From: a virus
Lineage: Duplodnaviria; Heunggongvirae; Uroviricota; Caudoviricetes
Reading direction: 5' to 3' (one strand)
IMG/VR virus record: IMGVR_UViG_2703718859_000017
Length of the DNA: 32,854 nucleotides
The notes under the pieces were generated by a model. That model saw only the letters and a program-made list of their open reading frames with translations. It was not told the DNA's origin and did not search any database. The translations under genes and the position numbers were made by a program. This document shows positions 443 to 32,854 of the stretch, piece by piece; the first letter of the stretch is position 1, and each line of letters opens with the position of its first letter.

Positions 443-908
443 AAATACGTCTGTAATCCAACGGAGAAAGGGTGCCATATCGACCGAACCCGGCAACCGG
501 ATAGCGGGGGCTTTCACCCCCGCTGCGGTTTCTTACTGTTTACACTGCAAGAACGCCGCAAATTCTGACCACATGATGTTAAGCCTGAACTCACACGGTG
601 ACTTGTGTATCATCCAGACAATCATCAAAATAGTTATGCATAAAATGCTCACTATGATCGTTTTTTGCGGCATAGCGCTTGACTCCTTTTACAGGGAGGC
701 GCTAACCTTCCACTTGCGAGGTAGATGGGTTAGGGCCTCGGGTTAAACAAATGTTTGACTCGGGGCCTTTCCACATCCGGCCTTCAGGTAATCCTTCCAG
801 CCGTCAGCCGAAAGGCACCCGCGCGTAATTTACCTTTTACGTCCGTTACGTGCAACGGATGACGTGGCTGTTTTTCCTTCCCCTTCGCCATCCTTTTTCG
901 GAGCAGTT

Positions 909-1129
909 GTGCAAAAGTGTGCAAAAGTGATTTTTGCTGCCACTCCCCGCCAGGCCGCGCCAGTTCTGGCTTTCCTGATTTTTTCGTTTTCGTTGTCGGA
1001 TCCTTTTTCAGATCTTCGATCGTGACGTAATTTTAAAAATCTCTTGTTATTCAGTGCATTAAAATTTTTCGGGATCCTCAGAAAGCCGGAGTTTTTGCAC
1101 ACTTTTGCAAAACCTTGCACAAAGTGCAA
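909..1129. repeat. 17-bp perfect inverted repeat pair (TGCAAAAGTGTGCAAAA at 910-926; reverse complement at 1093-1109), with tandem GTGCAAAAGT x2 at 909-928 and palindrome TTGCAC-AAA-GTGCAA at 1115-1129
   Basis: Read directly from the sequence. Coordinates anchored to ORF-track start 1105 (TTG). No convincing ORF between the repeats. Confidence 0.5.
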
Positions 1130-1244
1130 AACCATTCAGAAGGGAAAACCTCAGTAATGGCGCGCCCTGGCGGGGTGTTTTGCACCCCTTTCGATTTGCA
1201 AAATTTATCGTACACAAATACCGGAGGCGTGTGCGGGGTAGCGC

Positions 1245-1412
1245 CGATTACGTCACTTTACGCGTTACGTCGCCGCCGAAAATTTCCGGCCATTTGCGGC
1301 GATTTTGGGGCGCAGAAATCGTTTTCTGATGTCAGGGGATCGAATCGGGCTGGCGGGGTTATCTCTTCGTTACGTGGCGTTACGCGACGTTTTACGTGGG
1401 GATTACGTGGGG
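1245..1412. repeat. Cluster of TTACGYG / ACGTAA motifs, including four direct copies at about 11-bp spacing in 1369-1412; iteron-like array
   Basis: Read directly: cgttacgtggcg, ttacgcgacg, tttacgtgggg, attacgtggggcg. Further copies near 1247-1270, 1020-1030 and 825-850. Confidence 0.45.
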
Positions 1413-1498
1413 CGTTTCGTCCATCTTTTTTTCTGCTGCGGACGGTTTTTTCGTGGTGAGTGATGTCCGGTGATGAATATTTTTTATTATCGGGGGGA

Positions 1499-1523
1499 TA
1501 AAAAAGGCCACATTGCGCGGCCT
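1499..1523 (-). terminator. Candidate intrinsic terminator just downstream of the last tail-operon gene (AGGCC stem, 9-nt loop, then T6 on minus strand)
   Basis: Reverse complement reads aggccgcgcaatgtggcc followed by ttttttat, directly after the stop at 1538-1540. Confidence 0.4.
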
Positions 1524-1537
1524 GTTAAAATGAATAA

Positions 1538-3211
1538 CTATTCGATTATTGGCGAATATTTATTTTTTAGCTGGCGGCACTCCTGAGCGACCTGGCTGAA
1601 CTGTGCGGCCTGCGGAGACGTGCCCGTTTTTGGGTGGGTATGTGATGCTGTAATATCTGCCAGCTCTTCCACCACATCGGCAAGGTCCGTCAGCATGGTC
1701 AGTACATTAATGCCCTCGTTTCCCAGCTTCACCGTATCGCCAACCAGCTTCTGCGCCAGCGCAATACTGTGACGGACGCCCTTAATCTTTTCGGTAAGGC
1801 TGCCGCCCACGGTGTCCAGGGTGTCGCCTTCCACGTCGCGCTCACAGGTACCGGCAACCACCATCATGTGTCCGCCCGTGCTGATGCTGTAGCTCTCTTC
1901 AGTGATATGGGTGACCGCGCCAGCCTGAAGCGTGGATACGCCCAGGACGGTGGTTGTGTCGGTTGCCTGTATGGTGGTCTCCCGGCTGGTCAGGCTCCGC
2001 GTTTCCTCGTCTGCGCTCACCACGCGCTCGCGTGATGTCTCCTGTATCCGCTGGTCTGTCTGGCGCTCCCAGTCTCCGGCGACCGTCACGCGCTGCGATA
2101 CGCCGTCGCGCTGTTGCTGCAACTGCTCGCCCGGCTTCACGTCGGGCAGATTGTGGCCCTCTGCCATTATCTGGCGGATGAAGGGCTTATCCGCCCGGCC
2201 TTCCACAAATCCCACTTCCACCAGGGTTCCGGGCGGCGGGAACTGGAACATGCCGGACTCACTGCCCGCCATGGGAACGGGGAGGGGAACGGCGTTATAA
2301 ACGGGCGTATCCGCTGCCGGGTTGCCGTTCTCGTCAAGCAGCTGGAGATTCACCGCGTAGCGGGGTCTGAACGGGTCGGCAATATTGCCCGCGCTGACGG
2401 CTTCGGTCGGCGCCTCAACACGTGCCAGTTTGGGCAGGTGAAGCCCTGATGCCAGTTCAGGGAAGGCCTTTTCAGCCTGGCGACGGAAAGGGGACTTCTG
2501 GAGGGGAGCGCCGGTGGCTTTATTGCGCGGTGTCCACGTGATGGTCATGTTGTCATCTTCCAGCATGACCATCGTCAGGCGCTGACCGTTCACCTCCACA
2601 CCCGGTCGCAGCGTCTGAATCATCGGGAGGGTCATACTGTGCCCGCCCGTTGATGCCTGGCTGAACTCGTGCGGGATGGTGACGGGGCGACCGGAAAACA
2701 TCCCCTGCGCGGCAGCAGCGGCCATAATGCCGCCGTCCGGTAACGGATGCCAGATGTAATCCGGTACGGAGAAAATACGCCCCAGACTGGCCAGCAGTTC
2801 GTAGCCCGTGCCGCTGTGTGTGAAATGCGGAACGGGTCTGTCAGTGTAAGCCGCGTTGTCCGGCAGGATGATTTCCAGCCCGCTGGTCTCACTCAGCCAC
2901 TGTGTGACCGTGCGCATTGTCGGGTGCTGAAATGAACAGGGGAAGGGGTGATCAAGGATCCCCGCCATTTCACGAATCAGAAGCCGCACCGAGCCGTTTT
3001 CAGCGGGCTGGCTGCGTTCAACGTATCCGGTAAACCAGCGCACCAGGTCGTTTCCGTATCCGATATCGAGACGAACGGGGCGCCCGGTGTAGTTCTGCTC
3101 TGTTCTGGCCGTGATAAATCCGCGTCCGCACGCGTTCAGCTCAAGCATGACGGAACAACTGACCAGCTGAATGGTGTCGTTACCCAGTAACAGACGTTTA
3201 GTGGGGTTCAT
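1538..3211 (-). CDS. Tail-operon distal protein (557 aa); possible baseplate hub/spike-like component, function not established
   Basis: ORF track. Last gene of the tail operon before the terminator. C-terminal half has repetitive beta-rich character; no hub or spike gene is otherwise recognisable in the tail module. Identity is inference. Confidence 0.3.
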   Translation of the reverse strand: MNPTKRLLLGNDTIQLVSCSVMLELNACGRGFITARTEQNYTGRPVRLDIGYGNDLVRWFTGYVERSQPAENGSVRLLIREMAGILDHPFPCSFQHPTMRTVTQWLSETSGLEIILPDNAAYTDRPVPHFTHSGTGYELLASLGRIFSVPDYIWHPLPDGGIMAAAAAQGMFSGRPVTIPHEFSQASTGGHSMTLPMIQTLRPGVEVNGQRLTMVMLEDDNMTITWTPRNKATGAPLQKSPFRRQAEKAFPELASGLHLPKLARVEAPTEAVSAGNIADPFRPRYAVNLQLLDENGNPAADTPVYNAVPLPVPMAGSESGMFQFPPPGTLVEVGFVEGRADKPFIRQIMAEGHNLPDVKPGEQLQQQRDGVSQRVTVAGDWERQTDQRIQETSRERVVSADEETRSLTSRETTIQATDTTTVLGVSTLQAGAVTHITEESYSISTGGHMMVVAGTCERDVEGDTLDTVGGSLTEKIKGVRHSIALAQKLVGDTVKLGNEGINVLTMLTDLADVVEELADITASHTHPKTGTSPQAAQFSQVAQECRQLKNKYSPIIE

Positions 3212-16048: not shown

Positions 16049-16518
16049 TCGCGGCTCCTGCTGACAAACAGCTCCATGGTTTCCGCCGTCCAGATTTCAG
16101 GGTTAACCAGTGTCCAGCGTTTTCCCCTGTACGGAACGGGGCCGTCTTCCTGCACCCGGATGATCAGCGGGTCAGCCAGTCCCACCGTGATATCGAGAAG
16201 GCACGAATCCTCATCGTTAAACTGCGGGTCGACGTTCACATCCTCCGGGCGGAATTCCTCCCTCAGCGGGTCCGCGTGCTCTTCCAGCCAGGCCATGACC
16301 AGCGCGTAAACCAGCCCCGGTGAGTATTTGCGGAACGGGAAGTTATCCCATGCAATCACGCCGGTGTACGTCATCACGCCCATGCGGATCTGGTCGTTAC
16401 CCAGCGCCTTCTGACTGCGGATAAGCTGCGCGTCTTCCTGACTGCTCATGAAGAACTGCATGGCGTCAGGCGGCAGATTTTCGGTAATGAAGGCGGTCAG
16501 GCTTTCCAGCTGGTTCAT
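16045..16518 (-). CDS. Tail completion protein (P2 gpR-like, tentative)
   Basis: 157 aa ORF immediately after head completion gene L. Size matches P2 gpR (recalled as about 155 aa). Confidence 0.4.
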   Translation of the reverse strand: MNQLESLTAFITENLPPDAMQFFMSSQEDAQLIRSQKALGNDQIRMGVMTYTGVIAWDNFPFRKYSPGLVYALVMAWLEEHADPLREEFRPEDVNVDPQFNDEDSCLLDITVGLADPLIIRVQEDGPVPYRGKRWTLVNPEIWTAETMELFVSRSRE

Positions 16519-16988
16519 ATAATGTGCACTCCCGCGCGTCTGTGCCCCAGCATGTTACGCATGACCAGCGAGGCTTCAGCCAGTAAGGTGGCGCGTGTGT
16601 CCTCGCTTTCCTGCCCTGGATAGGTTTCACGGCGACCAATGGTGGCGAACTCGCCCATAAGATCGGCCTTGGCACGGGCATAAACGGCCTTTTTGTACTG
16701 TGCGACCAGCTGGGTTTCATCGCCCAGCCTGGCCCCCGGTACGTCTGCGGCGCGTTCATGCCCCTGCGCCTTCCAGTGCGCCACAACCGGCGCCAGCGTG
16801 GTGTTTACCTCGGCCACTGCGGCAAGCAGCGCCATGGCCGCCGTGTCGTCGGGTAAATCAGCCGGAAGCGTGCGTGACCCCTGAAGCTCAGCCAGATCAA
16901 GGTCCGGCCAGAACGGCTCGCCGTTTGTCACCGTCTGCGGTGTGGATTTCAGCGGTTTACCGCTGACGCTGAAGCTCGGTTCGCTCAT
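16515..16988 (-). CDS. L: Head completion/stabilization protein (P2 gpL-like)
   Basis: ORF track 16515..17039. Preferred ATG at 16988 with a GAGG-like SD. Directly downstream of the small terminase gene, as in P2. Confidence 0.65.
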   Translation of the reverse strand: MSEPSFSVSGKPLKSTPQTVTNGEPFWPDLDLAELQGSRTLPADLPDDTAAMALLAAVAEVNTTLAPVVAHWKAQGHERAADVPGARLGDETQLVAQYKKAVYARAKADLMGEFATIGRRETYPGQESEDTRATLLAEASLVMRNMLGHRRAGVHII

Positions 16989-17095
16989 GACGTGCCTCAT
17001 ATGAATAAAAAGGCGGGCTGTCCGGGATTCCACGGCCATACAGTTTCCGTCACTGATGCCTCCTCCCGCGCCCGCCCGGCCCTGCGGGTAGTCGT

Positions 17096-17794
17096 TTACG
17101 CTGCATTAAGGGCGCTGATGCGTGCCCTGATGCGCGCCCTGATACTTTTTACGCCAGCGGTACGGCTCAGTGCTGCCGCCTGTGCCAGGTATGCGTCTGC
17201 CTTTTCCAGTACGGCAGTATCATTAATCGCGGTGGCTCTCGGTTTGCCCGCCTCGTCGCGCAGAAGATACAGCCCGGCAAATCTGAACCACTTCGCGCGG
17301 ATTTCCTCATGCAGTCGCCACGTGGTGGTGACGTTCCTGAAGGTGCGCGAAAAATACGGCTCTATGCTGTGTCCGGCCTCGCTGTTGTCGGTGGCCCACT
17401 GCAGCACCGTGTCGGCCACGAAGGCGGGCAGGGTGCTGCGGAAGTTGTCCGGCGTGGCCTGGCCTTCACTGATGGCAATGTCTGCCCAGTCAAGGGCGCG
17501 ACTCAGGTCGCCCGTGTCGAACAGCCAGATGATGCAGTACACCAGTACCGGGCAGGCGTGGCGCTTTCCGTCAGCGATATAGCGCTCCGCGACGGGCAGC
17601 CAGCGCGGCAGGAGAATGTCGTGCTTGAACGCCAGCCGCTCTTCGCGGACAGGAAGACTGCGCAGCCGTGCCACATCGCGATCAAGCTCCGCGCGTAACA
17701 GGTGGAAGCTGACCGGGGAGGCCGTCAGCGCTTCCCGGCGTTCGAGTGCCTCCTGTGTGCGGATTTTCGCCCGGTGTCGCTGGCAGGGTGTCAT
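17096..17794 (-). CDS. M: Terminase small (endonuclease) subunit, P2 gpM-like
   Basis: 232 aa ORF between capsid N and head completion L. P2 head-gene order O-N-M-L is conserved. Confidence 0.7.
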   Translation of the reverse strand: MTPCQRHRAKIRTQEALERREALTASPVSFHLLRAELDRDVARLRSLPVREERLAFKHDILLPRWLPVAERYIADGKRHACPVLVYCIIWLFDTGDLSRALDWADIAISEGQATPDNFRSTLPAFVADTVLQWATDNSEAGHSIEPYFSRTFRNVTTTWRLHEEIRAKWFRFAGLYLLRDEAGKPRATAINDTAVLEKADAYLAQAAALSRTAGVKSIRARIRARISALNAA

Positions 17795-17811
17795 TGCGCC
17801 GCCCTCTGTGC

Positions 17812-18840
17812 TTATGCGCCGCCAGGTGCGGGCTCTTCTGCCGCTTCTGCGCCCTTGATGGTCAGCTTGTCGTAGGCCGCGTAAATTTCGTCGTGCTCCA
17901 CGGCGTAACCTTCCATGCGCAGATAGTTGTTTTCAAAACGCTTGCGATCGTCGTTCCACTCCGCACGGCGCTGACGGGTGCCGCGCTGCGTGTAGATGTG
18001 AAGGTTTGCCAGCGTGGTGACAATCAGGCGTCCTTCCGGCATGAACGGCGGGGTGTATGCTGTCAGCCCGGCGATCTGGCGACCGATAAGCTGCGCGGCC
18101 ACTTTTTCCGTGGGGGCGTCGATGGCGTTAAGCAGCGTCACCTTGTCCTGTGCCACAAGATCGGGCGCAACCAGTACCACCAGATCCGGATGACCGCGAT
18201 ACGACTCATCAATGAGGGTGTGCACGAGGTCTGCCACGGCTGCATCCAGCCCGATAAAGTCGCCACCCTTGCCCAGCGTCGGGCCAGCCTCCACGATCTG
18301 TTTTGCGCTGCGGCCTTTGACGATGGCATGCCAGCCGGTGTTGACGTCCTCGCCGCTTTTGTTGGTTACCGGGTCGGTATCTTCGGCCACGCTGGTACCG
18401 TTAAAGGCAATGCGCAGGATATCCAGCGCGATCTGTCTGTTAACAAAATTCTGAATGCGGTTAAAGAACTCGTTTTCACCGCCTGCGTTTGCCCAGGTGA
18501 CCAGTGTGGTGTACAGGAGGTGGGCACCGGAATCGGTTTCAGCCAGCTTGTATTCATTCCCGGTAACACCCAGCGGAAGGGTGAAGCGGGCATTTTTTTT
18601 ACGTCCGGTATGGAGGCCCGGAACGCCGGTGGTGACCACCTGGCCTGTCACCTGTTCAACATCCAGCACGTTCGGCAGTTTTGATAAAAACTCGTCGGAG
18701 TGCATGATGGCGTCACGCAGCGCGGTCTCCTTCGGGTCAGACAGCGCAAAATAGCGTGTGACGTCGTCAACTCCGTTTGCCGCACCCAGCCCGGCAGCGT
18801 ACTTACGAAGCAGTGATTCGGTTTTCTGGTTCAGTTGCAT
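17812..18840 (-). CDS. N: Major capsid protein, P2 gpN-like
   Basis: 342 aa. Motifs GKGGDFIGLDA and HPDLVVLVAPDL correspond to remembered P2 gpN segments. Confidence 0.85.
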   Translation of the reverse strand: MQLNQKTESLLRKYAAGLGAANGVDDVTRYFALSDPKETALRDAIMHSDEFLSKLPNVLDVEQVTGQVVTTGVPGLHTGRKKNARFTLPLGVTGNEYKLAETDSGAHLLYTTLVTWANAGGENEFFNRIQNFVNRQIALDILRIAFNGTSVAEDTDPVTNKSGEDVNTGWHAIVKGRSAKQIVEAGPTLGKGGDFIGLDAAVADLVHTLIDESYRGHPDLVVLVAPDLVAQDKVTLLNAIDAPTEKVAAQLIGRQIAGLTAYTPPFMPEGRLIVTTLANLHIYTQRGTRQRRAEWNDDRKRFENNYLRMEGYAVEHDEIYAAYDKLTIKGAEAAEEPAPGGA

Positions 18841-20046: not shown

Positions 20047-21873
20047 ATGCGCCGCCATAATGGGCGCATGGCTAAATATTCTGACGAAATCAAAGAGGCG
20101 GCGCGATCGCTTTACCTGAAGCGGTGGCACCCCCGCGATATTGCGGCGGAACTCGGTATTCCGCCGCGCACGGTTTACCACTGGTGTGATGTGGGGCAGT
20201 GGGCTGCCCTGCTGCCCGCTGAATCCGTTGAGGACGTGATCGCCCGGCGTATTGATGTTCTGACCGGACGGGAGGGCAAGACAGAGTGTGAACTTGCCGA
20301 ACTGCGTGAACTTATCGCGCAGCACGTGAAGATCATCGCCCAGAAAAACAAACATGCTGAAAGGATGGCGGAAATTGCCGCCCTGCGTCCGGCAGGGTAT
20401 GAGGACGGCGCGGCTGCGGGGACCTGCGGCGGGGGAGAAGGGAAAAAGCGGCGCTACCGGAAAAACGACGTTTCCGGACTGACTGCTGAAATGCTGGATG
20501 AATGGGCGCGTAAAAATCTTTATGCCTACCAGCTGCACTGCCGCGAGAACCGGCACCGTGAGCGCCGTTTCATCCTCAAGAGCCGCCAGATCGGCATGAC
20601 CTGGTATTTTGCATGGGAGGCGTTCGAAGATGCGGTGGTGACTGGTGATAACCAGATTTTCTTTTCTGCGTCACGGGTACAGGCGGAAATCTTTCGTGAA
20701 TATATTATTAACTTCGCCCTGCAGTTCGGGATCACGCTCACGGGTAAGCATATCCGTCTGAGCAATGGTGCAATGCTGCGTTTCCTGTCCACCAATGCCA
20801 GTACCGCCCAGGGATTTAACGGCCACCTTTACGGCGATGAGGTGTTCTGGATCCCAAAATTCACGCGACTGCATGAAGTGGCCTCGGCAATGGCGACCCA
20901 CGACAAATACCGCACGACGTATTTTTCCACACCCAGCGCCAAAACCCACCAGGCTTATCTGGTCTGGAATGGTGACGACTGGCGCGGGGATGATCCGGCG
21001 CGTCGTGCTGTTGAGTTTCCGAAAGAAAGCGCGATGCGTGTGGGCTGTGAATGCCCTGACGGGATCTGGCGCTACATTATCCGGCTGGAAGAGGCGGTGG
21101 CGGGTGGCCTGTCTGCACGGGTTGATATTGAACGTATCAGGAACCGCTACAACCCGACCACTTACGCGATGCTGTACGGCTGCGAGTTTGTTGACAGCAA
21201 GGATGCGGTATTTAAGTTCTCCGAACTGGTCAGGTGTGAGGTGGAGATGGAGACGTGGGGTGACTACGATCCCACGGCGGCACGTCCGTTCGGCAATCGT
21301 GAGGTGTGGGCGGGCTTTGACCCGTCAAGGTCCGGGGATAATTCCACGTTTGTGATTGTGGCCCCGCCTGTCCATGAGGGCGAGCGGTTCCGTGTGCTCG
21401 CTGTCTGGCAGTGGCAGGGATTTAACTTCACCTGGCAGGCCGATCAGATCCGCGAACTGATGCAGCGCTTTAACATTACCTATATCGGCATAGATATCAC
21501 CGGTATCGGGAAAGGGGTGTTTGATATCGTCAGTCGCTTTGCGCCACGTGAGGCTAACGCCATTCTTTACAGCGTGGAGAGCAAAAACCGCCTGGTGATG
21601 AAAATGATAGACGTGGTGGCCCATAAGCGTATCGAGTGGGCGAAAGACGCCATTGATGAGGCCAGCCGTGAACGCACGGAGATCCCCGCGTCGTTCATGT
21701 CCATACGCCGCACCACCACAAAAAGCGGTAACGCGCTGACGTTCGTGGCGGAACGGTCGGATGTTACGGGGCATGCGGATGTGTTTTTTGCCATTTCGCA
21801 CGCCGTGATTAATGAGCCTGTAGATTATGACTATGAACGCCCGTCCACATGGGCCTTCGGGAAAGCCGCATGA
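20047..21873 (+). CDS. P: Terminase large (ATPase) subunit, P2 gpP-like
   Basis: 608 aa ORF divergent from O and followed by the portal gene with an ATGA overlap. Alternative start at 20068. Confidence 0.85.
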   Translation: MRRHNGRMAKYSDEIKEAARSLYLKRWHPRDIAAELGIPPRTVYHWCDVGQWAALLPAESVEDVIARRIDVLTGREGKTECELAELRELIAQHVKIIAQKNKHAERMAEIAALRPAGYEDGAAAGTCGGGEGKKRRYRKNDVSGLTAEMLDEWARKNLYAYQLHCRENRHRERRFILKSRQIGMTWYFAWEAFEDAVVTGDNQIFFSASRVQAEIFREYIINFALQFGITLTGKHIRLSNGAMLRFLSTNASTAQGFNGHLYGDEVFWIPKFTRLHEVASAMATHDKYRTTYFSTPSAKTHQAYLVWNGDDWRGDDPARRAVEFPKESAMRVGCECPDGIWRYIIRLEEAVAGGLSARVDIERIRNRYNPTTYAMLYGCEFVDSKDAVFKFSELVRCEVEMETWGDYDPTAARPFGNREVWAGFDPSRSGDNSTFVIVAPPVHEGERFRVLAVWQWQGFNFTWQADQIRELMQRFNITYIGIDITGIGKGVFDIVSRFAPREANAILYSVESKNRLVMKMIDVVAHKRIEWAKDAIDEASRERTEIPASFMSIRRTTTKSGNALTFVAERSDVTGHADVFFAISHAVINEPVDYDYERPSTWAFGKAA

Positions 21874-22922
21874 GCAAGAAACGCAGAAACAAAACGTCAC
21901 GCGTGACGAAAAAAGCATTCACGCCCGCACGTGGCAGCACAATCACGTTTGGTCAGCCTGAACCGGTGCTGACCACCGGCACGGACTACCATAACATCTG
22001 GTATGACAACGAACACAACCACTGGCAGCTGCCGATTAACCGCCTGGCACTGGCGCAGCTCCCGAACCTTAACGCCCAGCACGGTGGGGTGCTGTATGCC
22101 CGCCGTAACATGGTGGCGGGGGGCTATACCGGTGGTGGCCTCACAACGGACCAGATGGAACAGGCGGTATTTGACTACCTGTTGTTCGGCGATCTCGCCC
22201 TGCTCAAGGTGCGTAACGTATTCGGCGACGTCGTGGCACTTGAGCCGCTTCCGTCGCTGTATCTCCGGCGCCGCAAAACCGGTGAGTTCGTGGTGCTTCA
22301 GGAAGGTCCCGCGCTGGTCTATACGCCGGAAGATATTATCTTTCTGCGGATGTATGATCCGCGTCAGCAAATTTACGGGCTGCCGGATTATATCGGTGGC
22401 ATTCACTCGGCGCTGCTGAACAGCGAGGCCAGCCTTTTTCGTCGCCGTTACTACAACAACGGGGCGCATATGGGGTTTTTGCTGTATACGAACGACCCGG
22501 GGATCACCACGGAGATGGAGGATGAGATCCGCGAGAAGGTGGCGGAGTCTAAGGGGCTGGGAAATTTCCGCAATCTGTACATCAACATCCCCAAAGGTTC
22601 GCCGGATGGAGTGAAAATTATTCCGATTGGTGAGGTGAGCGCCAAGGATGAATTTTCAAACATCAAGGGGATCAGCGCCCAGGATGTGTTTACGGCACAC
22701 CGCTTTCCTGCCGGTCTTGCGGGGATCATCCCCACGAACGGAGCCACCATCCCTAACCCGGAAACGACGCGTGAAACGTACCGCAAGGATGAGGTGATAC
22801 CGCTTCAGCGTAAAATCATGAACGCCGTGAACAGCGATCCCGATATACCGGAACACCTTTATCTTTGTTTTGATGTGGAAGCCGGGCATGTGGCGGAAGA
22901 AAAAGCGGTACCGGTCGGGTAA
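21870..22922 (+). CDS. Q: Portal protein, P2 gpQ-like
   Basis: ORF track 21849..22922. ATG at 21870 overlaps the terminase stop. About 350 aa, matching P2 gpQ. Confidence 0.8.
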   Translation: MSKKRRNKTSRVTKKAFTPARGSTITFGQPEPVLTTGTDYHNIWYDNEHNHWQLPINRLALAQLPNLNAQHGGVLYARRNMVAGGYTGGGLTTDQMEQAVFDYLLFGDLALLKVRNVFGDVVALEPLPSLYLRRRKTGEFVVLQEGPALVYTPEDIIFLRMYDPRQQIYGLPDYIGGIHSALLNSEASLFRRRYYNNGAHMGFLLYTNDPGITTEMEDEIREKVAESKGLGNFRNLYINIPKGSPDGVKIIPIGEVSAKDEFSNIKGISAQDVFTAHRFPAGLAGIIPTNGATIPNPETTRETYRKDEVIPLQRKIMNAVNSDPDIPEHLYLCFDVEAGHVAEEKAVPVG

Positions 22923-24307: not shown

Positions 24308-24712
24308 TTACCTGCGTGATTGTCTGCCAGCGGCTGAATGCACATAGCGGGCAATTGCCGCTTTGCGGTTAATCGTGACCAGTGTTCTGGTGAGTTCTGC
24401 GTTGTGTTTGTGTGCCTGCTCTTCGTGGTACTGCCGCATGATTTTTCCGGCAGGCGTGAGCGGCTCCGGCTCTCCGGGCGGACGGCGCGGACGAACGGCG
24501 ACAAGCCAGCTGCGGTTGGTGCTGTCCGGTCGTCCGTTGAGTATGTCGGTGATGATGGCCGTGGTGGTGCGATCGGGACTGACGACCGTGATTTCCAGCT
24601 CATCGCCCGGTTGTGGTCCCATGGCAATGTTGTTCAGGGTCAGTAAGGGCGTGCGCTGGCGCATCATTTCGTCAAAGCGCTGGCGCTGCATGGCGCAATA
24701 AAAGCGGGTCAT
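24308..24712 (-). CDS. Hypothetical protein (134 aa) translationally coupled to the 3' end of gene A
   Basis: ORF track. Start overlaps the A stop. Occupies the position of P2 orf91. Confidence 0.4.
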   Translation of the reverse strand: MTRFYCAMQRQRFDEMMRQRTPLLTLNNIAMGPQPGDELEITVVSPDRTTTAIITDILNGRPDSTNRSWLVAVRPRRPPGEPEPLTPAGKIMRQYHEEQAHKHNAELTRTLVTINRKAAIARYVHSAAGRQSRR

Positions 24713-27228
24713 TGTGGCGCCTCCGTATTCGGTGCGGGAGTGATATCAATGCGGCGGGTGCTGTCATTCCAGTACGCGGTGCGCCCGTCAGCCAGGCGCA
24801 CGCGGGCACCGTGACGGACGGAAACGACGGCGCTTTCATGCAGCTGCACGCCCAGCGCATCAAGCTCACGGGTGATTTGTGCGGTGATGTGTGGCTCAGC
24901 GGTCAGTGCGACACTCACGCGAACGCCGCCAGCGGGCGCACTGATGCCGCCGTTTTTCACGGTTTCCGTGTCAGGTGGCGGGTTTTTCAGCTGCCTGGTG
25001 AGTTGTTTTCGCTCTGTGGGGGTCAGTGACCTTAACCATTCACCCAAATCACCTTCCGGCAGGGTAAGTCGCTGCTCCCTGCGTCCGTCCGGCTGCCTTT
25101 CTGGCGGGTCGTTTATGGTCAGATTCTGGTCAGGGGGACAGTTATTGCCACGAGTCCAAGGTGCGGCAAAGCCGCACTCAACGTCAAAACCCTCGTCCGT
25201 GCGGTCTTCGTTTTCCGGCTTGCGTCTGACCAGTTTCCAGGTGTCCGGGTGGGTGCATATGGTGTAGCGCTCCCCGAGTGACGGGGCGCGGACGCCGTAA
25301 ATGCGTTGCGGGAATTCGCCGTAGTCGTTGGCCTCTTCGGCAGTTTCGTATGCGGTGCGGACCAGGTACGTGTTGCGGGGAATGAGCACACCACCCTGGC
25401 GGGTGATATAGGTGGCAAAACATCCCACGTCGGCGGCGGCCAGTATGGCGTCAATGTCGTCATGGTCCAGACGCTGCGGGGCAGTCGGGTTACGGGCCAT
25501 CTGCCCGGCAAGGCGGCGGAGTTCGCGCCATACCTGGCGGGGCGGGATACCGAAGAACTGGAACTGGCGGATGCGGTGAAGGGCCGCCCAGCCGATGGCG
25601 TTCTCCACGGTTTCGGCCATGGTTTTGCCTGATTCCTTATCGACGTAAGGTTTGCCGGTTTTCGGGTCATTCCCCATGAAGGCGCTGGCGTCCAGGTTCT
25701 TACCGATATAGGTCGCGATATAGCTTGCCGGTGTGCCTTTTGCCGGGTCGATTTTTTCGCATTTAAAACGCGGGGAGATATCATCACCCAGCTCTGCGCG
25801 GTCCTCCCTGATGGCGGCGTTGCGCATGATTTCAGTGATACGGGCTTCGTTTTCCGGGCTGGTGAATACCAGCATGTGCCAGTGCGGTGTACCGTCGTGG
25901 TGGGGCTCTACTGTGCGCACGCCGTACCAGCCCAGCCCGGCCTTGTTGATGGCCTTGCGGACGGCGGCGAAAAAGCGGTAAACCAGATAATCACTGGCAT
26001 CACGTACCGTTGCCCCGCAGTATTTCGGGTTCAGACTGCCGTCATCGTTCACGCTGTGAAAACGGGAAGGGGCTGTGACGGTGACGAAAAACGCCACGTC
26101 GCCGCGTGCTTCGGCGACCTGCTCCATCCCCCGGACGCAGGCCATCATCTCGTTACGGCGGTTACGCGGATTAGAGAGACCTGCCCAGTAGATATCCTCA
26201 AGGCTGAACCGTTCTCCTTCTTCGTTCTCGATGTCCCAGGCCTTCAGAAAATCGCGGGTGCGCTGGCGTTTTTCGCGCCAGTCCAGTAACGCTTCATGGC
26301 TGATATATATCGATGTCTTACGTGACACCAGACCTGCGGCGCGTAACAGCTCTTCACGCCAGATGTCCCGGAGGTGTCTTAACTGACTGTTCCACCATGT
26401 CGCACAGGAAAGGCGCATGACCGCACCCGGCACCTGTTCCGGGTCGGGGGCGGTGCGGCGGTCGGGCCTGATTTCCAGCGACGGCCAGCAGGGTGGCGTG
26501 ATACCCAGTTTTAACGCCATGTGTGCCAGTGGCTGGTAGGTCAGTAACCAGGTGAACAGGTCATCGTCACCCCTGCCGGTCTTTTCGATGACCTCATCAC
26601 ATGCGCGCTCCAGTGCGGTGGAAAACGCGGTGGCGGTCAGGGTGGCAAGGCGCTGGATTTCGTCACGGCTCAGCTGCGGCAGCATAAGCAGTTCATCCAG
26701 CCGTTCGCGTGCGGCGGTGGCCTTAAAGGCCGGGGTGGCAAAGCGTTCATTCACACGGGCGATACGTTTCAGGCGGGCACGCAGCCCGTGACGAACGAAG
26801 TTATCCGCCGCGTATGCGCTGTTGTTCTTAAGCCCTTCCCGGCGTGCGCTCTCCTGTTTGCGGCTCAGGCGTGCCAGGTCACGGATGAGCGGACCGGCAA
26901 GAAACGGCGGAAGGGCGCGCAGCTCTGCCATGGCTTCAGATACCAGTGTTGGCGGATTCTCGTGTTTGTGCCGCGCCAGTTTTTCCAGCCTGATCCGACG
27001 CTCTTCGTCGTGGTGAAGATGCGAATTAATTCGCTTGCCTTCGTCTGTGTTTGTCAGGAAGTCGACGGTCTCTTCATCCAGTCTTGCATCAATGCGAATG
27101 TCTTCGTTGATGTAGCTCTGAATGGCCTGGCGTAATGCGGTTGGTTGCGCTCTGCCGAACGTTTCAGGATCGATAACCGGTAGCGGGGCGTTCCACGGGT
27201 ACGCCAGCTGTGCATTGTGGTCACTCAT
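24709..27228 (-). CDS. A: Rolling-circle replication initiator (P2 gpA-like HUH endonuclease)
   Basis: ORF track 24709..27237 begins GTG; ATG at 27228 overlaps the upstream ORF stop (ATGA). Contains TPHWHMLVF (HUH motif) and YIATYIGK (active-site tyrosines). About 840 aa. Confidence 0.85.
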   Translation of the reverse strand: MSDHNAQLAYPWNAPLPVIDPETFGRAQPTALRQAIQSYINEDIRIDARLDEETVDFLTNTDEGKRINSHLHHDEERRIRLEKLARHKHENPPTLVSEAMAELRALPPFLAGPLIRDLARLSRKQESARREGLKNNSAYAADNFVRHGLRARLKRIARVNERFATPAFKATAARERLDELLMLPQLSRDEIQRLATLTATAFSTALERACDEVIEKTGRGDDDLFTWLLTYQPLAHMALKLGITPPCWPSLEIRPDRRTAPDPEQVPGAVMRLSCATWWNSQLRHLRDIWREELLRAAGLVSRKTSIYISHEALLDWREKRQRTRDFLKAWDIENEEGERFSLEDIYWAGLSNPRNRRNEMMACVRGMEQVAEARGDVAFFVTVTAPSRFHSVNDDGSLNPKYCGATVRDASDYLVYRFFAAVRKAINKAGLGWYGVRTVEPHHDGTPHWHMLVFTSPENEARITEIMRNAAIREDRAELGDDISPRFKCEKIDPAKGTPASYIATYIGKNLDASAFMGNDPKTGKPYVDKESGKTMAETVENAIGWAALHRIRQFQFFGIPPRQVWRELRRLAGQMARNPTAPQRLDHDDIDAILAAADVGCFATYITRQGGVLIPRNTYLVRTAYETAEEANDYGEFPQRIYGVRAPSLGERYTICTHPDTWKLVRRKPENEDRTDEGFDVECGFAAPWTRGNNCPPDQNLTINDPPERQPDGRREQRLTLPEGDLGEWLRSLTPTERKQLTRQLKNPPPDTETVKNGGISAPAGGVRVSVALTAEPHITAQITRELDALGVQLHESAVVSVRHGARVRLADGRTAYWNDSTRRIDITPAPNTEAPQ

Positions 27229-27641
27229 GCGTCGCACTCCCCGGCAGTCGCCGCCTGAAACGCCGCGCGGTACAGCACGAGAAGGCGCTGGTATTCACCG
27301 ATAAAGTCTTCTGCGGTGTATATGCCTTTCACGGCCACGCTGTGCGTTGTCATTTCCAGCACAAGCGCCATCTCTGACGACGACCAGTTGATGGCGGTGC
27401 TGTCGGTTCCGTTGATGTGAAATAAACCAAAACCATCACCATCACCTTTCACGTCCACGCGGTAACGGTCGTCAACGGTGAAGGAGAAATCCCCGTATGT
27501 GGTGACGCGTCTGGTGGCCTGTTTACAGGCGCGGCGGTAATAGTCGTGCCAGTCGTTCAGGCGGGAAGCCAGCCGGGGATCCACTGCCCACATCCAGTTA
27601 AAAAAGTCCTGAATATCTGAAAGTCCCTTAACGCTCTTCAT
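27225..27641 (-). CDS. Hypothetical protein (138 aa) coupled to the start of A
   Basis: ORF track. Stop overlaps the A start codon. No recognisable motif. Confidence 0.45.
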   Translation of the reverse strand: MKSVKGLSDIQDFFNWMWAVDPRLASRLNDWHDYYRRACKQATRRVTTYGDFSFTVDDRYRVDVKGDGDGFGLFHINGTDSTAINWSSSEMALVLEMTTHSVAVKGIYTAEDFIGEYQRLLVLYRAAFQAATAGECDA

Positions 27642-31792: not shown

Positions 31793-31858
31793 CGGTCCAT
31801 CTGGCCTTTATTTCTCAAAATTGTGATCAAGATGATGTTTTCATTGGGGGGCTTCCTT

Positions 31859-32854
31859 ATGTCGATTAAGAAGCTCGCTGATGGCAAATACTGTGTGGAC
31901 GTGCGGCCTGCTGGATCTGAAGGAAGAAGATTTCGGCGGCGATTTCCTACCCGTGGTGAAGCGGCGATGTATGAACGCCATGTTCTGACTCATTATCACG
32001 ATAAGGACTGGGTCGAAAAACCTATTGAACGTAAAGCGTTAAGCGATCTTCTGGAACTGTGGTGGGTGTACCACGGTAAGAATCATCGTTATGGCGCGAT
32101 GAATCGGGTCAGAATTGAAGCGGTTCTTCGTGATATGCAAGAGCTTGGTATTAACAGAAGTGACCACTTAACCCGAAAAAATATTATCAGATATCGCCTT
32201 GAATTAATGAATCGCGGAATTAAGCAGTCAACGGTAAATCGTTATTGTGCAATGATGAGCGGTTTCTTTGAAAAGCTGATTGATGTTGAAGAGTTTGTGG
32301 GTGATAACCCGTTTCACGAGATACGCAAGCTAACAATTAATCAGCCGGAAATGGCTTATCTTGCACATGATGATATTCCCAGGCTAACCGCACTTTTATC
32401 TGGCGATAATCTTAAGGCTGTATTGTTAAGCCTGGCTACAGGCGGGCGCTGGGGTGAAGTTGCCAATATTAAAGGTGAACACATAATTGGTGGGAAGGTT
32501 ATTTTCATGGAGACAAAGAATGGATCGCGGCGGGTTATTCCTATAGCTAAAGATCTTGAATCTCTGATTAAAGTCAAAGCGACGGGAAGATTAATGAACC
32601 CCAGTTATGCGATAGTCAGAAGTGCAATAAGGACTGTGCGGCCTGATTTACCAGTCGGTCAGTCTGTGCATGTTTTACGGCACACATTCGCAACTCATTT
32701 CATGATAAATGGAGGGAACATTATTACCCTTCAGCGTATTTTAGGGCACAGCACAATTCAGCAGACAATGACCTATGCGCACTTTGCACCTGATTATCTC
32801 CAGGACGCGGTAAGGTTCAATCCGGTTGCGGAGTTGTCCAGATTTTGCCCATAA
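31859..32854 (+). CDS. int: Tyrosine integrase (P2 Int-like)
   Basis: 331 aa from ATG 31859 (MSIKKLADGKYCVDVRP...). C-terminal HVLRHTFATHFMINGGNIITLQRILGHSTIQQTMTYAHFAPDYLQDA carries the R/H-x-x-R/Y catalytic box and matches remembered P2 Int. Stop is the last codon of the window. Confidence 0.9.
   Translation: MSIKKLADGKYCVDVRPAGSEGRRFRRRFPTRGEAAMYERHVLTHYHDKDWVEKPIERKALSDLLELWWVYHGKNHRYGAMNRVRIEAVLRDMQELGINRSDHLTRKNIIRYRLELMNRGIKQSTVNRYCAMMSGFFEKLIDVEEFVGDNPFHEIRKLTINQPEMAYLAHDDIPRLTALLSGDNLKAVLLSLATGGRWGEVANIKGEHIIGGKVIFMETKNGSRRVIPIAKDLESLIKVKATGRLMNPSYAIVRSAIRTVRPDLPVGQSVHVLRHTFATHFMINGGNIITLQRILGHSTIQQTMTYAHFAPDYLQDAVRFNPVAELSRFCP

Follow-up and report, generated by a model that had tools for sequence, protein, structure and literature searches.

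TTACGYG repeats beside the last late gene of an HP1-like Escherichia coli prophage are probably part of its cos site

The TTACGYG repeats in the window (the whole stretch of viral DNA that was analysed, 32,854 nt) most plausibly belong to a packaging (cos) site of the HP1-like type, in which they would be terminase recognition repeats as in lambda cosB. We assign this reading a probability of roughly 70%. The repeats are enriched over expectation, they stand at fixed distances from a cosN core that is conserved in the family, and the same window encodes P2-type terminase subunits. We infer that a terminase subunit binds the repeats and that this binding drives cos cleavage. Cos sites of this sort, flanked by recognition repeats, are well known, and the window adds a case.

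The window is an HP1-like prophage (Peduoviridae, P2 family) read in reverse. It encodes an integrase (31823–32854), a P2 gpA-type 'nicking at origin' protein (24709–27237, 23 kb from the repeats), the portal and large terminase proteins (20047–22922), and P2-type capsid, small terminase, and head-completion proteins (16515–18840), together with tape measure and baseplate proteins. The last late (tail/baseplate) gene (1538–3211, minus strand) encodes a homolog of HP1 orf35 with 557 residues, which matches PHROG 2258 ('baseplate protein') over its full length with an E value of 2.8e-241. In tblastn searches, this protein is 38% identical to HP1 orf35 over the full length and 58–67% identical to the counterparts in ESSI-2 and SI7, and the corresponding last genes of HP2, F108, phiO18P, and others match as well. 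Between this gene and the repeats, a terminator scan located the intrinsic terminator of the late operon (1505–1523, minus strand), which has an 8-bp stem followed by a T run, and an equivalent hairpin occupies the same place in relatives. The repeats are bordered on the other side by a hok/sok cassette (420–830) composed of a Hok ORF (533–673, minus strand) and a sok RNA (662–820, minus strand, an Rfam match below the gathering score). The cassette is 79–89% identical to hok loci of Stx2 phages, with homology ending at position 833, and in sister prophages such cassettes are found singly or as tandems of two or three (two in L001, three in L002).

The stretch 830–1540 is present in about 12 complete E. 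coli genomes (96.6–98.7% identical), in prophages at different chromosomal sites, and one to three hok cassettes separate it from the prophage end. Since the integration sites vary and the hok cassettes come before the prophage end, the cos/repeat region is internal to the phage and contains no junction. In the phage collection, 830–1540 had no blastn match at 65% identity or above, and only the hok part (465–833) matched Stx phages. The Rfam search returned sok and weak sub-threshold matches, none of them over the repeats, and a promoter scan of 400–1600 gave zero sites. A cargo ORF of 138 residues at 1–417 has a weak PHROG match, and strain 154 carries an unrelated BRCT-domain protein (L001, 6922–8118); this position beside cos, with hok cassettes on one side and the prophage end on the other, seems to be a variable 'moron' slot.

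We then counted the motif. TTACGYG occurs 22 times in the window, compared with 7.2 ± 2.6 expected from dinucleotide-preserving shuffles, none of which (0 of 100) reached 22. The scan that the original prediction had proposed therefore comes out above expectation. Seven of the 22 copies lie within 822–1409. A slightly broader form, SRCGTAA, which is the reverse complement of TTACGYS, was used for regional counts. The region 820–1420 (601 nt) holds 11 of the 40 matches in the window, with 0.44 expected from first-order Markov simulations based on the region's own dinucleotide content and 0.54 expected from the density of matches elsewhere in the window (Poisson P about 1e-11). The original prediction had described four direct copies about 11 bp apart in 1369–1412, and these are indeed present, starting at 1370, 1380, 1392, and 1403. 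Its further sites at 1247–1270, 1020–1030, and 825–850 all exist as well, except that 1020–1030 holds a single copy in the opposite orientation. The copies are hereafter referred to as array A (1370–1421), array B (1248–1271), array C (822–866), and the far-side copy.

As had been predicted, the stretch is non-coding. The ORFs at 830–1135 (minus strand), 1105–1329 (plus strand), and 1115–1459 (plus strand) have no Pfam match and are intact only in near-identical prophages, on which grounds a coding sequence was rejected. When the two overlapping plus-strand ORFs were used in tblastn, the matches covered only the conserved cos core, and did so in both frames, which points to constraint on the DNA. 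A RefSeq 'hypothetical protein' of L001 and L002, WP_224083737.1, spans the cos region (830–1120, minus strand). It is probably a spurious call, having no family match and being conserved in near-identical prophages only. SI7 gp25 and gp26 are likewise placed in the equivalent non-coding region.

We assembled loci with a homolog of the 557-residue protein from species-representative bacterial genomes (26 loci) and from IMG/VR (80 loci). In each of the approximately 80 distinct downstream sequences, which come from Enterobacterales genomes and IMG/VR, CTACACCGCACCCGCC is present with TGC after it. Aside from single substitutions in L022 and SI7, CTACACCGCACCCGCC is invariant, and its flanks vary freely. 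The same sequence constitutes the terminal redundancy of the linear ESSI-2 record (CTACACCGCACCCGC(C), 15–16 nt, at both ends), about 185 nt beyond the homolog. The annotated left cohesive end (cos) of HP1 lies 192 nt beyond the orf35 stop, with attP starting 250 nt further, and the 16-nt cosR/cosL annotated by the depositor of phiO18P, CTCATCCGCTCCCGCC, lies about 200 nt beyond the homolog. The predicted cosN core of the window, CTACCCCGCACACGCC (1226–1241, minus strand), aligns with phiO18P cosL/cosR and HP1 cos. It is identical to the relatives' CTACACCGCACCCGCC at 14 of 16 positions and thus departs at two from a sequence that is otherwise invariant. The distance from the stop codon of the orf35 homolog to the predicted core is 297 nt (about 170 to 850 nt in relatives). 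The landmarks following the core are also those of relatives, namely a T-rich TTTTGCA segment and then the GC-rich element CACCCCGCCAGGGCGCGCC (1159–1177, minus strand; inverted partner at 945–963), which corresponds to the family's CCGCCAGCCCGCGCC element. This element is conserved about 57 nt beyond cosN, and its alignment columns are conserved across 69 relatives.

Counted from the end of the cosN core, array B (minus strand) has GACGTAA at -46, CGCGTAA at -39, and GACGTAA at -29. On the plus strand, these copies read TTACGTC (1248–1254), TTACGCG (1258–1264), and TTACGTC (1265–1271). The far-side copy, GTGACGTAAT (1022–1031, plus strand), is inverted, lies 195 nt beyond cosN, and is followed by GATC; its 7-mer is GACGTAA at 1024–1030, with ATTACGTCACGATC and ATTACGTCAC as longer spellings. 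Many relatives have a [CGT]ACG[GT]AA copy starting at -46 and/or -29 from the core end (for example, cagACGGAAgcggatccagGACGGAAacggcg followed by CTACACC...), and other groups of relatives have GACAAAA or CACGAAA at -46 and -29. In many, a single inverted copy begins at +197, as a rule with GATC after it; in the SI7-like group it reads TTTCCGTCACGATC. Because the -46, -29, and +195 copies of the window match the positions of the relatives' copies, TTACGTC is the lineage's T-variant, and TTACGYG the lineage's form, of a family-wide cos-flanking repeat. Judged from these alignments, the copies of array B are positional homologs of the GACGGAA, GACAAAA, and CACGGAA repeats.

The layout extends to more distant phages. 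In HP1, the final 45 nt of the right end hold CACGGAA, CACGTAA, and CACGGAA; two more copies lie further out, and a far-side copy, TTTTCCGTG, is found about 215 nt into the left end. Three repeat copies abut cos in F108, which has TTTTACGTGG about 235 nt beyond. In phiO18P, three CCACGG copies are found at -59, -46, and -29, and the inverted TTTCCGTGG lies beyond cos. The inverted far copy of HP1, F108, and phiO18P is at about +215 to +235. K139 has CACGTAA and CACGGAA ahead of the core. Like the window, the HP1-like phages HP1 (Haemophilus), phiO18P (Aeromonas), ESSI-2 (Cronobacter), SI7 (Salmonella), K139 (Vibrio), and F108 (Pasteurella) have cos just past an orf35-type last late gene, with a homologous C-rich core (14/16 between the window and the enterobacterial consensus), repeats at -29 and -46, an inverted copy about 200 bp beyond, and the TTTTGCA/TTTTTCAG and CCGCCAG..GCGCC elements. 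The window differs from these relatives in its two core substitutions, the extra copy at -39, the added arrays A and C, and the hok/sok cassette and cargo gene inserted between cos and the attachment site. It also has GACGTAA at both proximal and far positions, whereas most enterobacterial relatives have GACGGAA or GACAAAA.

The near and far copies tend to agree in their variants. Specifically, SI7-like phages combine GACGGAA with TTTCCGTCAC, the window combines GACGTAA with ATTACGTCAC, and L121 and L124 combine GACGTAA with TTACGTGA; the far copies of the window, L121, and L124 all fit TTACGTSA. The agreement is not strict, since the far site of some GACAAAA-type phages reads TTTTACGTG. Neither the cos-flanking repeats nor the -46/-29/+197 layout is annotated in the related public records examined. 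We found no published account of cos-flanking repeats of HP1, K139, or P2 in the searchable literature, which did not include the original HP1 and K139 genome papers. A scan of viral contigs with CACGTAANNNNCACGTAA yielded chance matches only, the pattern being too unspecific.

A second repeat family, whose positions are as well conserved as those of the first, accompanies the cos core. TGCAAAA(G) repeats at 906–929 and 1093–1135, on both strands, bracket an AT-rich stretch with a cluster of GATC sites, and TGCAAAA amounts to eight copies within 340 nt in both orientations when those at 1178–1205 are included. The TGCAAAA form is shared by the window and SI7-like phages, and most other relatives have TTTTTCAG/CTGAAAAG at the same places; between lineages, all copies switch variant together. 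The TGCAAAA/TTTTTCAG family could be the site of a second cos-binding protein or of one terminase subunit. It could equally be this family, and not TTACGYG, that is the terminase site.

The two candidates for binding the repeats are a P2 gpM-type small terminase subunit (17096–17794, minus strand; Pfam PF05944, E = 8.9e-36) and a P2 gpP-type large terminase (20047–21873, plus strand; Pfam Terminase_6N, Terminase_6C, Terminase_5, and HTH_23). The N-terminal 70 or so residues of the gpP-like protein match the Terminase_5 (residues 14–69) and HTH_23 helix-turn-helix models, and this protein would be the nuclease that cuts cosN. The N-terminus of the gpM-like protein is mildly more divergent from SI7 and ESSI-2 (54–59% versus about 70% identity), a difference that is not diagnostic. 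A search of solved structures with the gpM-like and gpP-like proteins gave no useful homolog. By analogy with lambda cosB, terminase would bind the repeats cooperatively, through the gpM-like small subunit, the gpP-like N-terminal helix-turn-helix, or both. Two or three direct repeats (-29, -39, and -46) abut the predicted cosN on the side of the last tail gene, and the inverted copy stands across cosN from them at a distance of 195 bp. Once bound, terminase would set its large-subunit nuclease on cosN (1226–1241) for a staggered cut and would then stay on the cut DNA end so that packaging starts there. To this arrangement, the lineage has added a helically phased array of four to five copies some 110–180 bp further out (1370–1421) and a smaller cluster at 822–866. 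The original prediction had taken the phased layout to mean an array for a DNA-binding protein, possibly a regulator. The phasing holds, and the most plausible binder is terminase rather than a transcription regulator or a replication initiator.

[quoted passage not shown] A consensus scan for IHF sites (WATCAANNNNTTR) found no match in 830–1530 with one mismatch allowed, and the lambda architecture is therefore not copied in the window. The likeness lies in short repeated recognition sequences beside a nicking site. In lambda, three TerS-binding R sequences adjoin cosN, and the small subunit bound to them positions the large-subunit nuclease for staggered nicks, after which the enzyme keeps that end (PMC4669245). 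N15 cosB has one critical R3 and an inverted accessory rR2 about 200 bp away (PMC4669245), and this remote inverted rR2 is much like the +195 copy of the window. Unlike in the lambda/N15 architecture, cosN lies between the remote inverted copy and the proximal repeats in the window. The window's repeats are direct 7-mers at a spacing of 17 nt or 10–12 nt, and their binding is a prediction, in contrast to those of lambda and N15. The small subunits also differ, since lambda gpNu1 has a winged helix-turn-helix, whereas the gpM/PF05944 protein belongs to an unrelated sequence class. P2, 186, and P4 share with the window homologous terminase genes (gpM and gpP) and a cohesive end with a related CCCCGCC core; the P2 cohesive end is GGCGAGGCGGGGAAAGCAC, whose reverse complement contains TTTCCCCGCC. 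Unlike that of the window, P2 cos adjoins the portal gene Q and yields 19-nt ends. A by-eye comparison of its C-rich-strand side revealed no ACG(G/T)AA direct-repeat array, only two GACGG in the other orientation.

Array A is located between the late-operon terminator and the cos core, in the same orientation as array B (minus strand). It is composed of four exact CACGTAA/CGCGTAA copies and a degenerate GACGAAA. On the plus strand, the exact copies read TTACGTG (1370–1376), TTACGCG (1380–1386), TTACGTG (1392–1398), and TTACGTG (1403–1409), with spacings of 10, 12, and 11 nt, and the degenerate fifth is TTTCGTC (1415–1421). It adjoins a second copy of the CCCCGCCAGCCCG element (1346–1367, minus strand), which is seen only in the near-identical E. 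coli lineage and may represent either a degenerate cos-like core or another '+57 element' copy. The direct repeat CTGGCGGGGT is found at 1350–1359 and at 1167–1176. Array C abuts the hok/sok cassette and has copies on both strands, with CACGTCA, CACGTAA, and GACGTAA on the minus strand and one inverted CGCGTAA. On the plus strand, these are TTACGTC (837–843), TTACGTG (846–852), the inverted CGCGTAA (822–828), and the degenerate TGACGTG (860–866). Array C cannot be aligned with divergent relatives. No more distant relative has array A or array C, not even L119, L121, L122, L124, and L125, which are divergent IMG/VR contigs with the GACGTAA variant at -29; the two arrays are therefore dispensable for packaging in the family. 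Both are lineage-specific additions and would be either accessory binding sites or what is left of a partly duplicated cos region.

How much of the repeat set is functional bears on the main reading. It may be that only the -29, -46, and +195 copies work, and that array A, array C, and the CCCCGCCAGCCCG element beside array A are functionless leftovers of partial duplication or recombination in the cos region. Confinement of arrays A and C to near-identical E. coli prophages and IMG/VR contigs would fit such an origin, as would the second cos-region element copy CTGGCGGGGT after array A, which is what a local duplication would leave. The uniform 10–12-nt copies of array A are, however, more regular than a decayed duplicate of the 17-nt-spaced array B should be. 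Its copies are also intact across the approximately 12 E. coli genomes, where the sole substitution inside a copy, in L123, turns TTACGTG into TTACGCG, another allowed variant. We consider the relic explanation rather unlikely. Spacing by one helical turn, a single orientation, and preserved copies slightly favour a functional array A, although the E. coli prophages are too alike to decide, and arrays A and C may still be relics of a partial duplication.

In another reading, the repeats are bound by a protein other than terminase. Response regulators typically recognise direct repeats set one helical turn apart, and GTAAC-N5-GTAAC inside array A resembles the CpxR box, GTAAA-N5-GTAAA. A non-terminase architectural or regulatory factor of host or phage, such as an OmpR/CpxR-type response regulator, would then shape the cos region or control neighbouring transcription, for example from the hok promoter near array C. 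Array C does sit where the hok promoter should be, and the TGCAAAA family could be the true terminase site. The family equivalents GACGGAA and GACAAAA nevertheless lack GTAA and still keep the same distance to cosN. Moreover, the repeat differs between phage lineages although their hosts overlap, which points to a phage-encoded specificity protein. A scan of the whole window for TTACGYG/SRCGTAA found no cluster in the lysis-lysogeny switch region or ahead of the late operons. In view of the lineage-dependent repeat at a constant cosN distance and the lack of clusters at the switch and the late promoters, we disfavour a regulator and consider it distinctly unlikely.

The possibility of origin iterons, also raised by the original prediction, is not supported. 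What speaks for a replication origin is that the motifs are phased direct repeats, that three TTTTGCACA (908, 918, and 1093) fit the relaxed DnaA-box pattern TTWTNCACA, and that the region has a stretch of 36% GC (1001–1100) and four GATC sites (999–1076). The repeats are, however, tied to cosN across the family, at -46, -29, and +195/+197 from the cohesive-end core. No iteron-type Rep gene is beside the array, whose flanking genes are hok and the baseplate gene. The window has a single initiator, the P2 gpA-type rolling-circle nickase noted above, and P2 gpA acts at an origin inside its own gene. DnaA-box-like sequences are missing from the equivalent 340 nt of 71 of 79 distinct sequences, so the resemblance seems peculiar to the window's lineage; the matches look like a by-product of the TGCAAAA repeats. 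An origin is accordingly very improbable, and the region can be dropped as a lead to a hidden one. Least probable of all, at a level we regard as close to negligible, is that the repeats are integrase arm-type or Cox/excisionase sites of the attachment site. Integrase arm-type sites are short direct repeats, and in HP1 and SI7 attP is only a few hundred bp beyond cos. The prophage end here is more than 1 kb away, past one to three hok cassettes and cargo genes, and the arm-type repeats by the junctions and the integrase are of the TGGAC type (ATGGACGTTATCTGGACAC in L002, GTGTGGACGCTTTGTGGACAC in SI7, and GGTGGACGCTAAGTGGACAC in ESSI-2). An integrase arm-site identity was rejected for TTACGYG on the grounds that the arm repeats of this lineage are of that other type.

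Returning to the cos reading, it places the predicted cos of the E. coli HP1-like prophage group at 1226–1241 and proposes a cos architecture for the whole HP1-like branch of Peduoviridae, in which direct copies stand at -46 and -29 and the inverted one at about +197. These positions may be used for correcting genome ends and judging the packaging competence of prophages, for designing cos-plasmid or transduction tools, and for predicting which phages or satellites share a terminase. A further step, which we think is unlikely, would be that the E. coli lineage has evolved a new packaging specificity, with all cos-flanking repeats switched to GACGTAA from GACGGAA or GACAAAA, two changes in the core, and a second phased loading platform of four to five sites beside a cos-like element. 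If true, the new specificity could shield the phage against satellite piracy or cross-packaging by its HP1-like relatives; alternatively, array A would be a decoy or a regulatory sink for terminase.

Several smaller features are found around the repeats. On the plus strand, 1410–1422 form a small hairpin that has a T run (GGGCGTTTCGTCC ATCTTTTTTT); it opposes the late-operon terminator, overlaps the degenerate fifth copy of array A, and could stop transcription entering from the cos side. A long-range inverted repeat, CCCCGCCAGGCCGCGCCAG / GGCGCGCCCTGGCGGGGTG, pairs 945–963 with 1159–1177 (27 nt at 85%). The approximately 180 nt that it brackets include the AT-rich stretch, the GATC cluster, and the far-side repeat, and ESSI-2 has a similar inverted pair. 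Directly beside the far-side inverted repeat are three GATC sites within 23 nt (999–1021); 1073–1076 holds a fourth. Relatives keep a GATC directly after the far-side copy (…CGTCACGATC…), and SI7 and ESSI-2 encode DNA methyltransferases. The GATC sites beside the far-side repeat hint at methylation-sensitive binding.
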